Assembly: GCA_020428405.1 (NCBI GenBank)
Contig: JAGQMZ010000002.1
Location: 33-64,032 of the forward strand
Origin: Candidatus Saccharimonadota bacterium
Lineage (GTDB): Bacteria > Patescibacteriota > Saccharimonadia > Saccharimonadales > JAGQNJ01
Direction of reading: 5' to 3'
Length of the DNA stretch: 64,000 nucleotides
A program made the translations under genes and the position numbers. The notes below the pieces were generated by a model. The model was not told the origin of the DNA, made no database searches, and saw only the letters and a program-made list of their open reading frames with translations. Every line of letters starts with the position of its first letter. The stretch's first letter is position 1. Of the stretch, positions 5,144 through 24,824 are shown in pieces.

Positions 5144-5595
5144 GCAATATGATTATTTTCTAAATGTTCTAACTTTTTTCTTAAAACTGGGTTTAGGCCA
5201 GTTTGGCGAGATCGAAAAAGCACTTCCTGAAATTTTCCATTATCTGGATTTTCGGTGTTGGCCACTGCTTTATTAGCAACATCTAATATATCATCAACAT
5301 CTACAACTGCAAGAATACCTTCATATGTATTGATACTTAAAGAAGCGTACAGTCTGTTGAATCTGGCTGCAATCTCAAGCGAATCTCCATCTTCAAAACT
5401 TGCAGTTGTAGCCATTGCTAAGTGTCCTGCAAATTGTTCTCGCTCAGCTCCTTCCATTCGGCTAAACTCGGCTACAATTTGCCTATCCGTTATAGTTTGC
5501 TCCCGTTGCATCCTTAACTTATCCGCAATGCTCGCTTGCAAATCTACTACCGGGTCTCGTTGTATTACTTGATAGCTTTCTACTTCGGTTAACAT
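5140..5595 (-). CDS. Hypothetical acidic protein (151 aa)
   Basis: ORF with SD-like GAAAGGAA upstream. No family recognised. Preceded by the Ile-rich leader unit. Confidence 0.5.
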   Translation of the reverse strand: MLTEVESYQVIQRDPVVDLQASIADKLRMQREQTITDRQIVAEFSRMEGAEREQFAGHLAMATTASFEDGDSLEIAARFNRLYASLSINTYEGILAVVDVDDILDVANKAVANTENPDNGKFQEVLFRSRQTGLNPVLRKKLEHLENNHIA

Positions 5596-5610
5596 ATATT
5601 CCTTTCAATT

Positions 5611-5746
5611 TAAAAACCCCGCTGTTGCGGGGTTTGGGTTACTTTAACAATAACATTAATCCCGCGGTGGCGAGTTCTTAATAATTGCAATAATTATTGA
5701 TTGTGTCATCGGTAAAGTTTATACTCCTTACACAATTATCTGTCAA
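5611..5746 (-). promoter_or_regulatory. Candidate leader-peptide transcription attenuator (Ile type)
   Basis: TTGACA (5741-5746), N17, TATAAA (5718-5723). The ATG lies 8 nt after the -10. The 17-codon ORF is followed by the terminator AACCCCGC-aaca-GCGGGGTT plus TTTTT (5611-5634). GCGGG in the last codons can pair with the terminator 5' arm CCCGC. Confidence 0.45.
5656..5709 (-). CDS. 17-codon Ile-rich leader peptide candidate (MTQSIIIAIIKNSPPRD)
   Basis: 5 of 17 codons are Ile (ATA/ATT). Leaderless spacing from the -10 box. The stop lies about 20 nt before the terminator stem. Confidence 0.4.
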   Translation of the reverse strand: MTQSIIIAIIKNSPPRD

Positions 5747-16543: not shown

Positions 16544-16620
16544 AGGGGTGTAGCTCAGTTGGCTAGAGCGTCGGTCTCCAAAACCGAAGGCCTCGGGTTC
16601 GAGTCCCGCCACCCCTGCCA
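16544..16620 (+). tRNA. trnW: tRNA-Trp (anticodon CCA), CCA end encoded
   Basis: Acceptor AGGGGTG/CACCCCT, anticodon loop CU-CCA-AA, T-loop GGTTCGAGTCC, discriminator G, 3' CCA. Confidence 0.9.
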
Positions 16621-16632
16621 GCAAATTTTAAA

Positions 16633-16664
16633 CCCTGGCGTGAGGATGCCAGGGCTATTTTTTT
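16633..16664 (+). terminator. Intrinsic terminator after tRNA-Trp
   Basis: CCCTGGC-gtgaggat-GCCAGGG followed by CTATTTTTTT. Confidence 0.75.
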
Positions 16665-16680
16665 ATAGTATTTCGAATTT

Positions 16681-17340
16681 TTAGCGTAAACCAAGTTTGC
16701 TTGAACAGTGTGGCCATTGTCCCCAGCCACTTCTAGCTTGCAGAATCTCGGCACGCTTAATTTGCTCAGCTTTACTATTTTGGTGAGGTAAGCCAGTACC
16801 ACCAACTGAACGCCAGGTTGCAGCGCTAAACTGGACGCCGCCATAGTAACCATTGCCAGTGTTGATAGACCAGTTACCTCCAGATTCACAAGCCGCTAAT
16901 CTATCCCAAACTCCGCCATCAACATTTGCGGCAGGTGCTTGAGCAACGTTTTGCTTTCTAGATGAAACTTTCTTGCTTGAACTAACCTTCGGCTTAATGC
17001 TACTTACTCGAGCAACCTTTTCAGGCATTGGTCGCTCTGCTAGTTCTTCATCTGAAGATGGTATTCTAATTTGTTCGCCTGGATGTATTACATCTGGGTG
17101 AGCAATAAATACATTCGCGTAAAACAGTCTTTGGTATGTACTATCATTTGCTTTTGCAATTTTTGAAAGGCTATCGCCTTTCTGGACCTCAACAACTACC
17201 TGCGCTGGTTGTTGAGCTTCCGGTTGGCTAGCTTCTTGAGCATAAGCCTTTGATCCTGCAATGCCAAAAAATAGCACGGCAGAAATTATTCCCGCAGTAA
17301 GTACGGTTTTATTCATATTCTTGTTCCTCCTTATACCCAC
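16681..17340 (-). CDS. Secreted LysM plus Rpf-like (resuscitation-promoting-factor type) transglycosylase
   Basis: N-terminal signal/TM segment, LysM VQKGDSLSKIAK...GEQIRIP, and C-terminal WDRLAACESGGNWSINTGNGYYGGVQFSAATW. Confidence 0.8.
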   Translation of the reverse strand: MGIRRNKNMNKTVLTAGIISAVLFFGIAGSKAYAQEASQPEAQQPAQVVVEVQKGDSLSKIAKANDSTYQRLFYANVFIAHPDVIHPGEQIRIPSSDEELAERPMPEKVARVSSIKPKVSSSKKVSSRKQNVAQAPAANVDGGVWDRLAACESGGNWSINTGNGYYGGVQFSAATWRSVGGTGLPHQNSKAEQIKRAEILQARSGWGQWPHCSSKLGLR

Positions 17341-17499
17341 AGTAGCCCCTACTTACATTTTTAATTTATATGGGGACTGTTAGGTTTATAGTCACTCTTC
17401 CCTCACAAAAAAATGACACAAAGACCATCATACTGTTAATCAAATAAATGTCAAATAAACACTTTAAAAACAATGTTGTAATAATAACCTAAGTATTGT

Positions 17500-17706
17500 T
17501 TAGTGCTTTTTGGCTTTTACTTCATTTCGTCCAAGATTTTTTTTGGTTTCAGTAAAAGTTACATGTTTTCTTAAGCGCGGGTCGTATTTACGAAGACTTA
17601 GTTTGTCTGGCGTATTTTGGTTATTTTTAATAGTATAATAACTTCTTATTCCAGATTCTTCAGAAACAAGTCCTATAATTTTACGTTTGCTTGATTTTTT
17701 TGCCAT
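17500..17706 (-). CDS. rpmG: 50S ribosomal protein L33 (bL33)
   Basis: [55 protein letters not shown]. The internal ATG at 17706 is preferred to the track start at 17721. Confidence 0.9.
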
Positions 17707-17908
17707 CGTTTTTAACCTCACTTTTAGTTGGAATAATAACTGCCAGTATCAAATATGCGATAACTCCTGGTAAAAGACCAGAAATGATTGTAATTAGTAT
17801 ATAGCCGGCACGTATGATGTTTGGATCAATATCAAAGTACTCGCCAATTCCACCACAAACGCCTGCAATCTGCTTATCACTATTCGATCTTAGTAATTTT
17901 TTCATCAT
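17681..17908 (-). CDS. PspC-domain membrane protein
   Basis: [34 protein letters not shown] followed by a transmembrane helix. Confidence 0.7.
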
Positions 17909-17942
17909 TAAAAATGATAACAGATTATTGTAATAAATTCAA

Positions 17943-18017
<75 letters not shown>

Positions 18018-18050
18018 ACTAACATAGTACAAATTTTAAATATTTTATTT

Positions 18051-18136
18051 TGGTGCAGGGAGAGGGATTCGAACCCCCGAAGGCATAAGCCAGCAGATTT
18101 ACAGTCTGCCGTGTTTGACCGCTTCACTATCCCTGC
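18051..18136 (-). tRNA. trnY: tRNA-Tyr (anticodon GUA), long variable arm
   Basis: Acceptor GCAGGGA/TCCCTGC, anticodon loop CU-GUA-AA, extra arm, GGTTCGAATCC, encoded CCA. Confidence 0.9.
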
Positions 18137-18213
18137 CCAAGTAGCCACATTGTAGCTACTGAACACTTTCCTGACTCTCCTCATGGTTTAGATGTTCTCG
18201 CATTACATCTAAA

Positions 18214-18290
18214 TGGAGCCGGCAGAGGGATTCGAACCCACGACCTACGGTTTACAAAACCGCCGCTCTAACCAACTGAGCTATGCCGGC
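18214..18290 (-). tRNA. trnT: tRNA-Thr (anticodon UGU)
   Basis: Acceptor GCCGGCA/TGCCGGC, anticodon loop UU-UGU-AA, GGTTCGAATCC, encoded CCA. Confidence 0.9.
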
Positions 18291-21024: not shown

Positions 21025-22053
21025 TTATTCCTTTCGTAAGCCGACTGCATTTTGGACATTTAATAATGTATGGTTGGCTGTATGGTTCATGGTTTTTTCT
21101 GAATATTCAAGTTTGCTCAGTAATGCAGACTCATCTACTGAATTTAGTTTTGATTGAAAATTACTTAAAAATTTACTTACTACTTCTGCAACGTCTTTTT
21201 TAAGTTGTCCGTATTGCGACTGCCCTTTGTATTTACTAATAACAGATTCAATGCTTTCACCTGAAAGCGCAGCAAATATATCTAGCAAGTTACTAATACC
21301 AGGCTGTTTTTCATAATCGTAGTTTACAGAGCCAATACTATCAGTTGTTGAGCCCACAATTTTTTTAGAAGCAATTTCTGGACTGTCTCCTAAAAATATG
21401 ACACCCTTACCTGTTTCATCAGATTTACTCATTTTCTTTTCTGGGTTAACTAAATCACGAATTCTCAGACGTTGTTGTTTGTTGGCAAACTCTATTTGAG
21501 CGTTTTCTGGCTCTGGTGGTGTAAATAATTCACCGAACTTATTATTCACCCTTATGGCAATATCTCTTGCTAGCTCAACATGCTGGGTTTGATCAGCACC
21601 TACCGGCACGTATTTGGCCCCGTAGAGTAATATATCGGCAGCCATCAACACTGGATAATCAAATAGTCCTGCGCTTATGCCTTGTTTGCCTTGACCCTTT
21701 TCTTTGAATTGAGTCATTCTGCTTAGTTCACCCATGTAGGTAAAGCAATTTAGGATTACTGTAAGTTCGCTATGGGCAGGAATATAACTCTGACGATAAA
21801 TGTATGAATCCTTATCGTCCAAGTTAAGGCCTGTTGCAACAAATATTTTAAGGTTATGCATGGTTTGATCATATAGCTTGCTGTGGTCTATAGGTGTAGT
21901 AAAGCTGTGAAGATCTGGCACAAATAAGTTTACTTGATATTCGCCCGCATAAGCCTTTTGAAGCTCGACAATAGGAAGCAAAGCACCTAAATAGTTGCCC
22001 AGGTGTAAATCATTATTTGCTCTTAGACCGGTTAGTATAACTGGCTTACTCAT
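21025..22053 (-). CDS. trpS: Tryptophan--tRNA ligase
   Basis: ILTGLRANNDLHLGNYLGA (HIGH-type) and KMSKS present. About 340 aa, class Ic architecture. Confidence 0.93.
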   Translation of the reverse strand: MSKPVILTGLRANNDLHLGNYLGALLPIVELQKAYAGEYQVNLFVPDLHSFTTPIDHSKLYDQTMHNLKIFVATGLNLDDKDSYIYRQSYIPAHSELTVILNCFTYMGELSRMTQFKEKGQGKQGISAGLFDYPVLMAADILLYGAKYVPVGADQTQHVELARDIAIRVNNKFGELFTPPEPENAQIEFANKQQRLRIRDLVNPEKKMSKSDETGKGVIFLGDSPEIASKKIVGSTTDSIGSVNYDYEKQPGISNLLDIFAALSGESIESVISKYKGQSQYGQLKKDVAEVVSKFLSNFQSKLNSVDESALLSKLEYSEKTMNHTANHTLLNVQNAVGLRKE

Positions 22054-22080
22054 TGTTTTGTATATTATACCTTATTTTCA

Positions 22081-22140
22081 TTAACTTAATTTCATTGTTT
22101 GATATAGCTCTGCTGTTTTTTGGCTTACTAAAGTTTCCAT
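22081..22140 (-). CDS. Possible 19-aa mini-ORF (METLVSQKTAELYQTMKLS) between attenuator and trpS
   Basis: Good SD GGAAGGA 4-5 nt before the ATG, directly after the terminator U-tract. No conservation evidence available. Confidence 0.2.
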   Translation of the reverse strand: METLVSQKTAELYQTMKLS

Positions 22141-22154
22141 AATTTCCTTCCGTT

Positions 22155-22320
22155 AAAAAAGACCGCCGATGTGGCGGTCTTTTGGTTTACTTATATAAAT
22201 TTATTTAACAATATGAAATAGAACGCCACTGGTGTGGTTTTGTAAACCAAAAGTAATATTGATTTATAGCTCTACTTAACATAACAAAACTAAAATATAC
22301 CATGCCCTAGTAATTGTCAA
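22155..22320 (-). promoter_or_regulatory. Candidate ribosome-mediated attenuator (Trp type) upstream of trpS
   Basis: TTGACA (22315-22320, overlapping the M20 TGA stop) with TATATT/TATTTT as -10. Contains the 25-codon ORF. The box AGUGGCGUUCUA (22219-22230) is complementary to the terminator 5' arm CGCCAC. Terminator is GACCGCC-acat-GGCGGTC (22161-22179) plus TTTTTT. Confidence 0.5.
22205..22282 (-). CDS. 25-codon Trp/Tyr-rich leader or arrest peptide candidate (MLSRAINQYYFWFTKPHQWRSISYC)
   Basis: Leaderless spacing from the -10. Same length as the ORF at 24526-24603, with shared M1, R/K4, I/V6, Y9, W12, P16, W19-R20-S21 and Y24. Confidence 0.5.
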   Translation of the reverse strand: MLSRAINQYYFWFTKPHQWRSISYC

Positions 22321-23393
22321 CTATTAACTCTACTGAATTTGGTTACAAATTTTTTAAGGAGTTTATAAAATTTTTCTATACTTTCTTTTGAAATCCACTC
22401 TTCATCTCCATGGGCCCCGCCACCATCTGGACGAAGCATTATAACGGGTATATTTTTTTCTGCAAAAAATCTTGCATCCGATGAACCGTGCGCTCGTGTA
22501 AAATTAATAATACCATTGTTTTCTTTTTTATAAATTTTTATGAATTGTTGCACGTATGGATTTAATTTATCAAGCACATAATCCTGGCCATTTTTTTCAT
22601 TTTTTATAGATACATCATACTTTAGAAATAGTGAGTTAAGATGTTTGTATATTCTTGTTAGGTCATCCTGTGATTTATAGCGAATGTCTAGTGTACAATC
22701 AGCAGTTGCTGGGCCTTTGTTTTCAGAATCCCCAGAGTTTATTTTCGCAATTGTGACTGTCGAGTTAACTGTATTTGACATGTCAAACAGTTCTTCAACT
22801 TCAGATAAAAATTTAACCATTTTTGAAGCCGCACCATCACCCTCCCATGGACGTGAACCATGGTGGGCTTTACCTTGAACAGTTAACTCTAAAATAAGGA
22901 TGCCTTTGGCTCCTATATTTAGACTACCAAAACCCTCTCCGGCGTCTGGGAGTATACATAAGTCTGCAGAGTACCCTTTATCAAGCAAGCTTTTTACTCC
23001 ATTAAAGCCACCAAGTTCTTCATCTCCTGTAAGCATAATACCCAAATTATAATTCTTAAGATTAGGTTTCAGCTCATTTATAAGCTTAATGAAGCATGCC
23101 GTGGCAAAAAGCATGTCATATACTCCTCTTCCAAAGTACTTATTGTCAGTTTGTCTAAATCCTTGACCCTCTCCGGGGACAACATCAATGTGAGCCTGAA
23201 GCAAGAGTTTGGTTTTTTTGGTTCCTTTGGTGCCTGCATATAAACTATAAACCCCGTCATTTTTAAAAATTGAGGTGAATAGTCCAGCATTTTTCAAACT
23301 TTTTTCTACGTATTTACATAGCTGTTTAACGTTTTCTTGTTTTTCAGACTGAGGGTAAAATTCTACTAGTTCTTTGAGTGTTTTTTCTAACAT
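22317..23393 (-). CDS. M20-family metallopeptidase (ArgE/DapE/CPG2-like)
   Basis: LQAHIDVVP, GRGVYDM, GDEELGG and GKAHHGSRPWEGDGA are M20 metal-binding and catalytic motifs. Confidence 0.85.
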   Translation of the reverse strand: MLEKTLKELVEFYPQSEKQENVKQLCKYVEKSLKNAGLFTSIFKNDGVYSLYAGTKGTKKTKLLLQAHIDVVPGEGQGFRQTDNKYFGRGVYDMLFATACFIKLINELKPNLKNYNLGIMLTGDEELGGFNGVKSLLDKGYSADLCILPDAGEGFGSLNIGAKGILILELTVQGKAHHGSRPWEGDGAASKMVKFLSEVEELFDMSNTVNSTVTIAKINSGDSENKGPATADCTLDIRYKSQDDLTRIYKHLNSLFLKYDVSIKNEKNGQDYVLDKLNPYVQQFIKIYKKENNGIINFTRAHGSSDARFFAEKNIPVIMLRPDGGGAHGDEEWISKESIEKFYKLLKKFVTKFSRVNS

Positions 23394-23400
23394 GAGTTAA

Positions 23401-24447
23401 CTATACCAGAACGGCTCCGCTTACAGCATTACTTGCACCGTGCAGTAAAACTTCATTTCTTGCCACGTAACATCCTCCAACTGCTTCTGCACTTACTACT
23501 CCACTCTCACTACTTAGTAAAGTAAACACTCTTAGGATTGCATTAGTGCGATCCTCACTATTGACAATCTGAAAAGGAGGGAGGAACTCTTGAACAAGTG
23601 CTCCCTTATTTTGTTCGCAGTACTTACTAAGGTCACGTTTTAATCTGCTTGCAGTTACTGTCCTGGCCTTACCGTACCTCTCTCGGTCGCTTCTTGATAA
23701 ATATATACTAATACCCATTGCCATAGACCCAAGGCGTGACTTTACTACTTGTGATGAAAGATCTCCATTGAGATCAACAAGTAAATCATCTTCACTTTTT
23801 ACAGCCGTAAGTATACCTACTTTCTCAGCATACGTTTTGTCTCCTTCGGTAACAAGTGGTGCTACAGCTTGTTGCTGAAACTGTAAGTAGGGATCTCTTG
23901 ATGTTTTACTTCCAGGTATAGCTTTAACAATAACTGGTCCGTTAATTCTGAGATCTTCTGGAACATTGCCAATATTGATATATTTCGAGTCACCAACTAT
24001 TAAGCCATCATCAGTGCCGTGACCACGTTCATTAGAAATAATAACAGTGGGAGGAGAGTTCAGTAGCTCTTCATAGTGACCAAGTATCACATCTTTTATT
24101 CCTGCTCTTCCAATGCTTTTATGGATTATGTCGGTAATGCCCTGTCCTGAAGGACTATCTTCCATCTCATAGGGCAGCATTACTCCATTTTTTCCAATTG
24201 TGCAGTCTACCCTGGCAACCAGTGTGGGTATACCAAACATATTATATGCTTGTGTGTCTTCTGTTGTGTAATTTTCTGCAGCGCCAGACGCAAAGTCTTC
24301 AATTTGTTGCTTGTGTTCTTCGCTAAGTACAATTACATCGTTTGAAAATGGTGTTGACAGACCATCGTATAAATAAAGCTCACCATTTTGTGAGGCAAAG
24401 CTTATCGGGCCAGTTTCATTTAATCGTTGACTACTTATTTCTCTCAT
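23401..24447 (-). CDS. Hypothetical protein, possibly ATP-grasp-like ligase
   Basis: PVIVKAIPGSK..., ALVQEFLPP and a C-terminal GGCYVARNEVLLHGASNAVSG loosely resemble ATP-grasp strand motifs. Weak assignment. Ends 7 nt upstream of the M20 gene. Confidence 0.5.
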   Translation of the reverse strand: MREISSQRLNETGPISFASQNGELYLYDGLSTPFSNDVIVLSEEHKQQIEDFASGAAENYTTEDTQAYNMFGIPTLVARVDCTIGKNGVMLPYEMEDSPSGQGITDIIHKSIGRAGIKDVILGHYEELLNSPPTVIISNERGHGTDDGLIVGDSKYINIGNVPEDLRINGPVIVKAIPGSKTSRDPYLQFQQQAVAPLVTEGDKTYAEKVGILTAVKSEDDLLVDLNGDLSSQVVKSRLGSMAMGISIYLSRSDRERYGKARTVTASRLKRDLSKYCEQNKGALVQEFLPPFQIVNSEDRTNAILRVFTLLSSESGVVSAEAVGGCYVARNEVLLHGASNAVSGAVLV

Positions 24448-24470
24448 ATCTCTTTCTCGTTTCTTTAGGT

Positions 24471-24642
24471 AAAATTATAAAAACCGCCTAGTGGCGGTTA
24501 TGTATATTTATATCTTATAGAAAAACTAGGAATACAAAGTAGAACGCCACTTTCGCGGGTTATTATGCCAATGCCGATAATATGTGACTGTTTTATTTAC
24601 CATATCTGCACCAATATACACTTTAGATACTCTAGTTGTCAA
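24471..24642 (-). promoter_or_regulatory. Paralogous attenuator unit upstream of the ATP-grasp-like/M20 pair
   Basis: TTGACA (24637-24642), N18, TATATT (24613-24618), 25-codon ORF, identical box TAGAACGCCACT (24540-24551, plus strand). The box is exactly 57 nt from ACCGCC of the terminator, as in the trpS unit. Terminator is AACCGCC-acta-GGCGGTT (24482-24499) plus TTTTTAT. Confidence 0.5.
24526..24603 (-). CDS. 25-codon Trp/Tyr-rich leader or arrest peptide candidate (MVNKTVTYYRHWHNNPRKWRSTLYS)
   Basis: The ATG lies 9 nt after the -10. Paralog of 22205-22282, with mostly conservative replacements (L/V, R/K, I/V, F/H) and a synonymous Pro codon. Confidence 0.5.
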   Translation of the reverse strand: MVNKTVTYYRHWHNNPRKWRSTLYS

Positions 24643-24824
24643 CCTAATATCAAATTACCATCTTTATAAGTAGCTTTTTCAGCCTCTTCAATTTTACTAA
24701 GTTCACCCTGAAAGTAAACTTCTTCTAGTTCTGAAGGTTCGGGATCTGCAATAGTGGCGTCAACCTCAACACCCTGCAAAGTCATATCATAGATAGGGCC
24801 TTCAGTACTGTTTAATTGCTCCAT
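24639..24824 (-). CDS. Hypothetical small acidic protein (61 aa from the internal ATG)
   Basis: The track ORF 24639-24938 overlaps the rpsI 3' end, so the internal Met at 24824 is used. No SD and no family, so this is a weak call. Confidence 0.3.
   Translation of the reverse strand: MEQLNSTEGPIYDMTLQGVEVDATIADPEPSELEEVYFQGELSKIEEAEKATYKDGNLILG

Follow-up and report, generated by a model that had tools for sequence, protein, structure and literature searches.

The stretch of DNA analysed here, called the window throughout, is 64,000 nucleotides (nt) long and comes from contig JAGQMZ010000002.1 of a Candidatus Saccharimonadota (Saccharibacteria) bacterium. On its minus strand, between a gene for an M20-family deacylase and trpS, the gene for tryptophanyl-tRNA synthetase (TrpRS), lies a compact leader unit consisting of a promoter, a short open reading frame (ORF) with a run of aromatic codons, several mutually complementary segments and an intrinsic terminator, followed by a second small ORF (ORF2). 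We read the letters directly from the 64-kb window, and all window coordinates are on the minus strand. A sequence-only reading of this DNA had listed a promoter, an ATG near its −10, a mini-ORF with two UGG codons, the complementary boxes GUGGCG and CGCCAC, a terminator, a 19-codon ORF with a Shine-Dalgarno (SD) sequence, and trpS, and each of these features reappeared at the same coordinates. The unit and its target gene are made up as follows, with predicted pairings taken in part from the minimum free energy (MFE) structure.

22320–22315, minus strand: −35 of the leader promoter, TTGACA (sequence reading and promoter scan).
22299–22294, minus strand: alternative −10, TGgTATATT (sequence reading).
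22297–22292, minus strand: −10, TATTTT, with a 17-nt spacer from the −35 (sequence reading and promoter scan).
22282–22205, minus strand: leader ORF MLSRAINQYYFWFTKPHQWRSISYC, 25 codons plus the TAA stop at 22207–22205 (reading and translation).
22277–22269, minus strand: 5′-proximal segment AAGUAGAGC, predicted partner of GUUCUAUUU at 22224–22216 (MFE structure).
22258–22244, minus strand: aromatic run Tyr9-Tyr10-Phe11-Trp12-Phe13 (UAU UAC UUU UGG UUU), the proposed stall site.
22253–22242, minus strand: CUUUUGGUUUAC, spanning the Trp12 codon and perfectly complementary over 12 nt to 22190–22179.
22237–22234, minus strand: CCAC, local partner of GUGG at 22229–22226 and the region 1 part of the predicted anti-antiterminator (MFE structure).
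22229–22216, minus strand: region 2, GUGGCG (22229–22224) plus UUCUAUUU (alignment of the family).
22190–22179, minus strand: GUAAACCAAAAG, partner of 22253–22242, abutting the 5′ arm of the terminator.
22183–22155, minus strand: intrinsic terminator, AAAAGACCGCC, loop ACAUC, GGCGGUCUUUU and a U-tract (reading and folding).
22176–22171, minus strand: region 3 core CGCCAC, the antiterminator partner of GUGGCG (complementarity).
22151–22081, minus strand: ORF2 METLVSQKTAELYQTMKLS, 19 codons, with SD GGAAGGA at 22151–22145, ATG at 22140 and TAA at 22083–22081.
22069–22064, minus strand: own −10 of trpS, TATAAT, 10 nt before the trpS ATG, with no SD.
22053–21025, minus strand: trpS, 342 amino acids (aa), Pfam PF00579, 72–89% identical to TrpS of Saccharibacteria.

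The leader promoter scored 10/12 in the window promoter scan, and the TGA stop of the deacylase gene (22319–22317) falls within its −35. The leader ATG (22282–22280) starts 9 nt past the end of the −10 and has no SD. The two UGG codons are codon 12 (22249–22247) and codon 19 (22228–22226), and CCAC lies within about 12 nt on the 3′ side of the first. Region 2 is a degenerate form of a box, (N)GUGGCGGUUUGUUCYGUG, found across the family described below, and its partner CGCCAC is shared between the 5′ arm of the terminator (CGCC) and the loop (AC). The terminator core pairs GACCGCC (22179–22173) with GGCGGUC (22167–22161), extends to 11 bp when the A/U tracts are included, and ends in T6 at 22160–22155. 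Since the ORF2 ATG follows the U-tract by only 14 nt, there is no space for a promoter of its own. The TrpS encoded downstream is 72–75% identical to TrpS from metagenome-assembled Saccharibacteria genomes.

Statistics within the window did not set the unit apart. Promoter-like sites were no more frequent than expected by chance (11 found versus 12.1 expected). Folding, proposed earlier as a check on the leader, agreed with it for the leader as a whole (z −4.95, mostly owing to the terminator) but not for the RNA on the 5′ side of the terminator, which had no significant structure (z −1.6). It is the conservation of the mini-ORF, promoter and terminator in relatives, rather than these statistics, that leads us to regard them as real and not products of chance.

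Judged from sequence comparison, the unit belongs to an undescribed family of more than 100 putative leaderless leader-peptide transcription attenuators located between rpsI and trpS in Saccharibacteria, and it recurs in more than 100 genomes of this group. Loci in other genomes are given L numbers here. At L088, whose TrpS is 78% identical to that of the window, the promoter and start read TTGACT-17-TAGAAT, 9 nt, ATG, the leader peptide is MISRNINYFGFWFTNPQEWRSA, and the terminator AACCGCC-acgaa-GGCGGUU with its U-run is followed by an SD, a 66-aa ORF, TATAAT and trpS. A peptide-motif search recovered the leader peptides MVSHDINYFDFWFSNPQEWRSA at L092 and MSRNINQFYFFWFTNPRQWRATS at L099 (TrpS 65% identical). 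A TTGAC[AT] −35 stands at the same place in these three loci, a CCAC-N4-GUGG hairpin is kept in each, and the element lies behind different upstream genes or behind the terminator of rpsI itself. Among the close leader peptides, Arg4 is encoded by AGA, CGT or CGA and Asn7 by AAT or AAC, synonymous changes that are a signature of selection on coding sequence. ORF length, Trp12 and the leaderless promoter, for which conservation in relatives had been suggested as a check, are all kept.

Two wider searches linked the element to its genomic position. An nhmmer profile built from four sequences (the window, L088, L092 and L099) detected it in 33 of 80 species-representative trpS loci, on the trpS strand and within 1.5 kb upstream. 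A DNA-only pattern that carried no information on trpS, TGGTTTACCN{10,12}TGGCGGTTTNTTC, matched at least 80 loci in a scan of 185,579 species genomes. Taxon labels of the 80 loci listed were Saccharibacteria, Patescibacteria or unclassified 'bacterium' in all cases but one (L241, Bacillota). At 70 of these 80 listed loci, trpS lay downstream on the same strand, 270–3000 nt from the UGG; the other 10 were short of downstream sequence, with less than 940 nt in nine and 1.7 kb in one. With rpsI upstream in 69 of the 80 listed, the scan marks the element as a fixture of the rpsI–trpS interval. Only two strong copies were found by nhmmer in the 64-kb window, and both are in this interval.

Some relatives were less informative or lacked the element. 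The first four TrpS relatives have short regions upstream of trpS with TATAAT and AGGAG, which initially suggested no conservation, but the profile search located the element 1–2 kb upstream in three of them. L086 (TrpS 79% identical) has no leader, with 80 nt between a 61-aa gene and trpS. L081–L084 are strain-level contigs identical to the window, and their lack of variation makes them uninformative.

The leader ORF and its promoter have a consistent layout across the family. Figures given from here on were obtained from 100 non-identical elements, with a trpS-anchored set (n = 31) for coding features and alignment A3 for RNA pair counts. In 83/100 elements, an in-frame start codon follows a TAnnnT hexamer at a distance of 4–11 nt (mode 7 nt, n = 40); 45 of these 83 match the −35 consensus TTGACA at five or six of six positions, and 2/83 have an SD-like motif before the leader start. 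Because the start abuts the −10 and SD-like motifs are rare, the leader mRNA is predicted to be leaderless throughout the family, although the start site is itself a prediction. The frame containing the UGG is open in 94 of 97 elements, compared with 39 and 56 for the other two frames, and promoter-proximal ATGs are in frame with the UGG in 76 of 85 cases. Most leader ORFs are 22–26 codons long (71/83), with the Trp codon at index 10–12 (70/83). In its typical form, the unit has its ATG 7–9 nt past the −10 and a near-invariant UGG. These comparative patterns show selection on the leader ORF to be open, in frame and close against its promoter.

The conserved coding signal is a run of aromatic codons rather than tryptophan alone. 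In the trpS-anchored set, the residue before Trp is Phe or Tyr in 24/31 elements and the residue after it is Phe in 27/31; positions −3 and −4 are often aromatic, for a mean of 3.6 aromatic codons out of six from −4 to +1. In the rare elements without Trp, its place is taken by Tyr (L124, YYFT) or Phe (L201, FFFT). The earlier reading had suggested tryptophan sensing; what is conserved is a Tyr/Phe-Trp-Phe run. The second UGG listed in that reading (W19) arises only where one frame crosses the region 2 box, which most members read as VAVCSV(R) or RGGLFRV(FA), and at L003 the ORF ends just before the box. Reading in two frames means that region 2 is conserved as RNA. Elsewhere the ORF runs open through the box, and its stop, mostly 19–28 nt past the beginning of GGCGG, is placed so that a ribosome terminating there would sit over the box. 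Downstream of the GUGGCGG box come ACCGCCAC...GGCGGU(U)n and then an SD-led ORF, the terminator having the consensus GAAnAUAUnGAAnAGACCGCCAC-loop-GGCGGUUUUUU.

Alternative RNA helices are supported by covariation across the family. The antiterminator, in which region 2 pairs with region 3, is paired in 79.7% of alignment cells, against 39–49% in slid controls, and none of 500 shuffles reached the observed value. Covariation links the base on the 5′ side of UGGCGG to one in the terminator loop (GC 61, CG 14, UA 8, GU 3), a link that is explained solely by the antiterminator. The terminator itself is 96.4% paired, with double changes at four of its eight pairs. Region 1 pairs with region 2 as ACCGACAC:GUGGCGGU in 70.9%, with ACCGACAC beginning 6 nt after the UGG, and the closing pair of this helix covaries with the same box base (CG 56, GC 10), making the covariation three-way. 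Regions 1 and 3 both track region 2, as expected for mutually exclusive helices. We take the slid controls and the loop-base covariation as stronger arguments than the shuffles. The GUGGCG:CGCCAC alternative pairing that had been read from the window is therefore conserved, with covariation, well beyond it.

Pairing of region 2 with more 5′ sequence was assessed separately. In an alignment-free energy test (n = 83), both the 5′ segment (mean z −1.43) and region 1 (−0.87) were more complementary to region 2 than shuffles were. A 5′ stem in fixed columns, CAGAACAA:UUGUUCUG, was paired in 43.9%, similar to slid controls, and we rejected it. For the window's own anti-antiterminator, only CCAC:GUGG and the predicted 5′ pairing are available.

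The constraint on region 2 as RNA raises the possibility of a switch that works independently of translation, in which the UAUUGGUUUACC loop and the GUGGCGGUUUGUUC box would bind a ligand, tRNA or protein and the ORF would be incidental. Nucleotide-level conservation of the core extends to wobble positions (UUU, ACC), and trpS T-boxes use UGG as their Trp specifier codon. We nevertheless regard such a switch as highly improbable, given the signs of selection on the ORF (94/97 open frames, 76/85 ATGs in frame, a start that abuts the −10 and a constrained stop position). The roughly 30 nt on the 5′ side of the UGG are too few for a T-box Stem I, the antiterminator lacks a T-box bulge, and no T-box or other Rfam family matches the leader region or eight relatives.

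Conservation at the peptide level points to a second alternative, nascent-peptide arrest, in which the conserved [YF]-W-F-T in the exit tunnel would stall the ribosome on a small molecule and the position of the stall would set the choice between terminator and antiterminator. Free tryptophan, as for TnaC, or an antibiotic, as for Erm and Cat leaders, could be that molecule. Conservation of the peptide motif reaches far past the one Trp codon, a lost Trp is replaced by Tyr or Phe and not by a random residue, and N-terminal residues of the close subfamily are kept through synonymous change, as at Arg4. With Trp at index 10–12 and the end of the ORF about 12–14 residues later, the spacing also resembles the W12...P24 of TnaC. 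However, the C-terminal half is read in two frames or, at L003, cut off before the box, and it has no conserved arrest residues, with neither a terminal Pro nor an Asp at W+4. The conservation of Thr-Asp-Thr is accounted for by the ACCGACAC:GUGGCGGU RNA pairing, the terminator is intrinsic and not Rho-dependent, and the link to trpS and aromatic-pathway genes fits tRNA-charging control equally well. On balance, we think peptide arrest unlikely.

We consider it likely, though short of firmly established, that the unit controls transcription by classical ribosome-mediated attenuation of the trp/phe type, with a leaderless mRNA as its basis, and that it senses charged tRNA-Trp or aromatic tRNAs. 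Transcription would start at the AUG at 22282 or 1–2 nt before it, and a 70S ribosome would translate the 25-codon leader. A shortage of charged tRNA-Trp, and possibly of charged tRNA-Phe or tRNA-Tyr, would make the ribosome pause on Tyr-Tyr-Phe-Trp-Phe, with UGG at 22249–22247. The paused ribosome would cover about 12 nt downstream, including CCAC, and keep the 5′ segment and CUUUUGGUUUAC unpaired. GUGGCG (22229–22224), freed in this way, could pair with CGCCAC (22176–22171) once that is transcribed, so that the 5′ arm of the terminator would be occupied and polymerase would pass the U-tract into ORF2 and then trpS. When supply is adequate, the ribosome would reach the UAA at 22207 and cover or unwind region 2 while regions 3 and 4 emerge; with region 2 masked, the GACCGCC/GGCGGUC hairpin and U6 would form and a transcript of about 130 nt would end near 22155. 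Without translation, AAGUAGAGC:GUUCUAUUU and CCAC:GUGG would hold region 2, again leading to termination. Across the family, the supply that is sensed is probably that of tryptophan and other aromatic amino acids, with tRNA-Phe and tRNA-Tyr probably part of the signal besides tRNA-Trp.

Folding of individual members is compatible with these steps. With a ribosome masking the UGG, the antiterminator is the MFE structure of typical members (−32.0 and −27.7 kcal/mol). In the window, with the ribosome at the UGG and the 3′ arm of the terminator untranscribed, GUGGCG:CGCCAC forms together with UCU:AGA (−11.5 kcal/mol), and in the ribosome-free fold, region 2 is tied up by AAGUAGAGC:GUUCUAUUU and CCAC:GUGG alongside a formed terminator. 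This copy belongs to a subfamily with region 2 shortened to GUGGCG.

A further complementarity around the first UGG appears to be private to the window lineage. It had been reported as CUUUUGGUUU/AAACCAAAAG; it is present, and at 12 nt (CUUUUGGUUUAC:GUAAACCAAAAG) is two longer than had been noted, but it is not kept in the closest homologues L088, L092 and L099. We rejected CUUUUGGUUU/AAACCAAAAG as a conserved antiterminator for this reason and on topology, since it crosses GUGGCG:CGCCAC. With a linker of only 2 nt, CUUUUGGUUUAC:GUAAACCAAAAG and GUGGCG:CGCCAC would be mutually exclusive, and the former may serve as an extra anti-antiterminator that a ribosome stalled on the UGG could remove.

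In no case is trpS itself the first gene past the terminator; that place is taken by an SD-led ORF or a cargo gene. In most of the 72 loci parsed, this next gene begins within about 40 nt of the terminator and has a strong SD, the SD-led starts lying about 16–45 nt past it (a few are nearer or farther, and one locus has none), a gap too short to hold a promoter. Roughly half of the loci have a single ORF of 57–112 aa, with its stop between −8 and about +60 nt of the trpS ATG. In many loci we observed that the stop of this small ORF lies inside the trpS TATAAT or overlaps the trpS ATG, and this overlap suggests translational coupling. The small ORFs are hypervariable, with 52 sequences forming 43 BLASTP clusters, which rules out ORF2 as one protein family. 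A conserved position with divergent sequence is seen at L088, L092, L099, L191, L225 and about 45 other loci; an N-terminal A-R-x-I-L recurs in some of these ORFs, and a C-terminal motif resembling (N/S)PYF in some. At L085 (TrpS 89% identical), the ORF2 frame is kept with amino acid changes, and the window ORF2 resembles the N-terminus of the 66-aa ORF of L088. By this resemblance, the 19-aa window ORF2 is best read as a remnant of the ~66-aa type seen there.

Cargo genes behind the terminator include several functions in aromatic amino acid synthesis. Cargo was named at L111, L108, L140, L125, L185, L199, L163 and L218. We found 3-deoxy-D-arabino-heptulosonate 7-phosphate (DAHP) synthase of class I (L111, L108 and a recurrent type of ~353 aa) and of class II (L140), prephenate dehydratase (L125 and others), Asp/Glu racemase and a ~350-aa family without known function. 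Aromatic-pathway enzymes behind a leader of aromatic codons are what an amino acid attenuator predicts. The small ORF at L218 looks chorismate-mutase-like, judged by eye only. Genes for DAHP synthase and prephenate dehydratase in some environmental Saccharibacteria are unexpected for a group usually described as lacking amino acid biosynthesis.

The trpS gene itself appears, from its upstream sequence, to be leaderless with a promoter of its own. Of 63 trpS-anchored Saccharibacteria loci, 57 have a TATAAT-like hexamer (five or six of six positions) 4–14 nt upstream of trpS, and only 14 have an SD-like motif. Because trpS lacks an SD and has this leaderless promoter for basal expression, we propose that any rise in TrpRS synthesis on read-through may come through translational coupling from ORF2. 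Of the sequence-only description of an attenuator for trpS, the tie to trpS is borne out, but an SD-led ORF or cargo comes first after the terminator, and any control of trpS would be exerted through it. Directly after trpS in the window is a 66-aa ORF (21018–20818, minus strand), which has no Pfam match and overlaps the start of an RluD-like pseudouridine synthase gene; a 67-aa ORF occupies the same position at L088.

The window also contains a second, diverged copy of the element upstream of the first, with a layout as follows.

24642–24479, minus strand: second element copy (nhmmer E 1.5e-14, sequence reading and folding).
24642–24637, minus strand: −35, TTGACA, with −10 TATATT at 24618–24613 and ATG at 24603.
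24550–24545, minus strand: GUGGCG, within the ORF for the peptide MVNKTVTYYRHWHNNPRKWRSTLYS, which stops at 24528–24526.
24499–24493 and 24488–24482, minus strand: terminator arms AACCGCC and GGCGGUU, with a U-run.
24447–23401, minus strand: gene for a 348-aa protein behind the copy 2 terminator.
23393–22317, minus strand: M20 deacylase gene.

The −35 of copy 2 overlaps the TGA of the preceding 61-aa gene, the same layout as in copy 1. The 348-aa cargo protein had no match in Pfam, NCBIfam or PDB sequences. Compared with L086 and L088 (rpsI, 61-aa gene, trpS), the window holds about 2.4 kb of extra sequence (within 22054–24650), and by this comparison the 348-aa gene, the deacylase gene and one leader copy look like an insertion into the rpsI–trpS interval. 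Tandem leader copies with cargo between them also occur at L001, L134, L192, L201, L211 and L251, an arrangement that resembles a cassette array. Elsewhere in the window, a weak nhmmer match to the 3′ part of the leader profile (5593–5652, minus strand, E 0.0076) is probably only a similar terminator. We also noted a ribosomal protein L10 leader (RF00557, 4972–5118, minus strand, 67.1 bits) and four clustered tRNA genes (16544–18290).

The neighbouring operon offers an account without regulation, in which the hairpin ends the 348-aa/M20 operon, the mini-ORF is a micro-protein gene, a small RNA gene or a relic, and trpS is expressed from its own TATAAT only. We found no terminator between the M20 stop and 22183, and because nothing else separates the M20 gene from copy 1, the copy 1 hairpin probably does end that operon too. 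The −10 of trpS, the shortening of the window ORF2 to 19 aa, the weak window antiterminator and the absence of the element from L086 would all agree with such an account, and the window copy may be partly decayed. As the sole explanation, however, an M20 operon terminator with a chance ORF was rejected, since the unit stands behind other genes or the rpsI terminator in L088, L092 and L099. Covariation of a loop base with an upstream box would be absent from an ordinary terminator, nor does this account fit the promoterless SD-led ORF immediately after the terminator throughout the family. The C-terminal half of the peptide is also not conserved as protein. We therefore judge an absence of regulation improbable.

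Returning to the attenuator, several points weigh against it or limit its reach. Its support comes from sequence comparison and predicted folding. The leader has only one or two Trp codons, which would give weak discrimination. Flanking Phe/Tyr codons and Thr are as strongly conserved as Trp, and the N-terminal S-R-x-I-N is conserved with synonymous changes in the close subfamily; together these hint at a role at the peptide level. The 5′ pairing is backed by energy statistics but not column by column, and the sequences are phylogenetically related, so the shuffle controls overstate significance. In the window, the antiterminator is weak (6 + 3 bp, −11.5 kcal/mol, compared with −18.3 kcal/mol for the full-length terminator state) and by these energies could act only kinetically, and copy 1 may be decaying, given its 19-aa ORF2 remnant. 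Finally, trpS has its own leaderless −10, and this promoter motif is also found at L086, which has no leader. Read-through may not raise TrpRS at all, and would need internal initiation to do so, for which coupling to the ORF in front of trpS is the most plausible route.

A broader reading extends the attenuator to a class-wide sensor of aromatic amino acid starvation. The leader would be a portable module at a gene-insertion hotspot, placed before interchangeable cargo (DAHP synthases, prephenate dehydratase, the chorismate-mutase-like ORF, racemases, the ~350-aa family with the M20 deacylase, and small ORFs), and the last ORF would hand ribosomes by termination–reinitiation to the SD-less trpS, whose start would otherwise function solely on a leaderless mRNA. 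We put this forward tentatively, as a possibility about which we have more doubt than confidence. Saccharibacteria are ultra-small epibionts generally regarded as amino acid auxotrophs. If the portable-sensor reading is true, the cell would adjust TrpRS together with aromatic scavenging or biosynthesis to the supply from its host.

The attenuator model, if it holds, has implications for the biology of these reduced cells. It would mean that they couple transcription to translation, monitor tRNA charging and tune expression to the host supply of aromatic amino acids. Some environmental Saccharibacteria keep genes for DAHP synthase and prephenate dehydratase behind the leader, and these genes would be under the same control. 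The element also gives a compact, sequence-defined handle for studying how epibionts sense nutrients, and could serve as a natural inducible control element in the genetic systems that are in development for these organisms (PMC11665869). For annotation, more than 100 intergenic regions of the class can now be labelled.

Searches of databases and literature returned no earlier account of the element. It is absent from Rfam 15. When the whole window was searched at the gathering threshold, 21900–22500 at E ≤ 10 and eight relatives as well, the searches gave only sub-threshold, terminator-driven matches for the leader, and tRNAs; the matches to Trp_leader (RF00513, 22.3 bits versus a gathering threshold of 41) and Phe_leader (RF01859, 26.6 versus 55) are of this kind. 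T-box models had no match in 21900–22500 even at E ≤ 10, nor in the eight relatives at the gathering threshold. In the literature, we found no description of the element, nor of any cis-regulatory amino acid sensor in Patescibacteria (candidate phyla radiation).

Comparison with known systems places the element closest to the classical attenuators. Like E. coli trpL and other leaders of its type (RF00513, RF01859), it carries its regulatory codons immediately 5′ of region 1 in a small leader ORF, combines alternative 2:3 and 3:4 pairings with a putative, likewise exclusive 1:2 pairing, ends in an intrinsic terminator and has a stop codon placed where a terminating ribosome would mask region 2. 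It is not homologous to them in sequence or structure. In contrast to the SD-led trpL type, the Saccharibacteria leader is leaderless, has a mixed Tyr/Phe-Trp-Phe run in place of tandem Trp codons, and precedes small variable ORFs, aromatic cargo and trpS rather than a trp biosynthesis operon.

Synthetase genes behind leader peptides are known from other phyla. The pheST attenuator of gamma-proteobacteria is one case, and in Streptomyces classical attenuators have been predicted before leuS and, in S. avermitilis, before trpS2 (Seliverstov et al. 2005, PMC1262725). These share with the Saccharibacteria element a synthetase gene behind a leader peptide of cognate codons with a terminator and antiterminator, but belong to other phyla without detectable homology; in Saccharibacteria, an ORF or cargo is interposed and trpS keeps its own leaderless promoter. 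The trpS T-box of Bacillota has the same target gene, senses charging of tRNA-Trp and makes the same terminator/antiterminator decision. Unlike it, the Saccharibacteria leader has no Stem I, specifier loop or T-box bulge, and its codon would be read by a ribosome in an ORF.

A leaderless build had been regarded as unusual for such a device, but it has precedents. Leader peptides precede aroF, trpE, leuA and ilvB in Corynebacterium glutamicum (PMC3890552), and leaderless polycysteine small-ORF attenuators are described in mycobacteria (bioRxiv 10.1101/834739). Both resemble the Saccharibacteria element in having a leader ORF on a leaderless mRNA, and aroF encodes a DAHP synthase behind a leader, as in some Saccharibacteria. 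They differ in being actinobacterial and without sequence relationship, and the mycobacterial Cys elements have no obvious intrinsic terminator.

The likeness to TnaC of the E. coli tna operon, which the sequence-only reading had offered as an alternative model, is limited to the peptide length of about 24 residues and to a Trp12 that has Phe as its next residue. In TnaC, W12, D16 and P24 are conserved and a stall at the stop codon blocks Rho. The defining features of a TnaC-type arrest peptide fail here, as the Saccharibacteria leader has no conserved Asp16 (W+4) or C-terminal Pro, a C-terminal half in two frames and an intrinsic terminator. The logic would also be reversed, since TnaC induces when Trp is abundant. 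Overall, the type of device is known, and what is new is an unmodelled sequence family in Patescibacteria, with a mixed aromatic run, a fixed place before a leaderless trpS and an apparently modular association with cargo genes.

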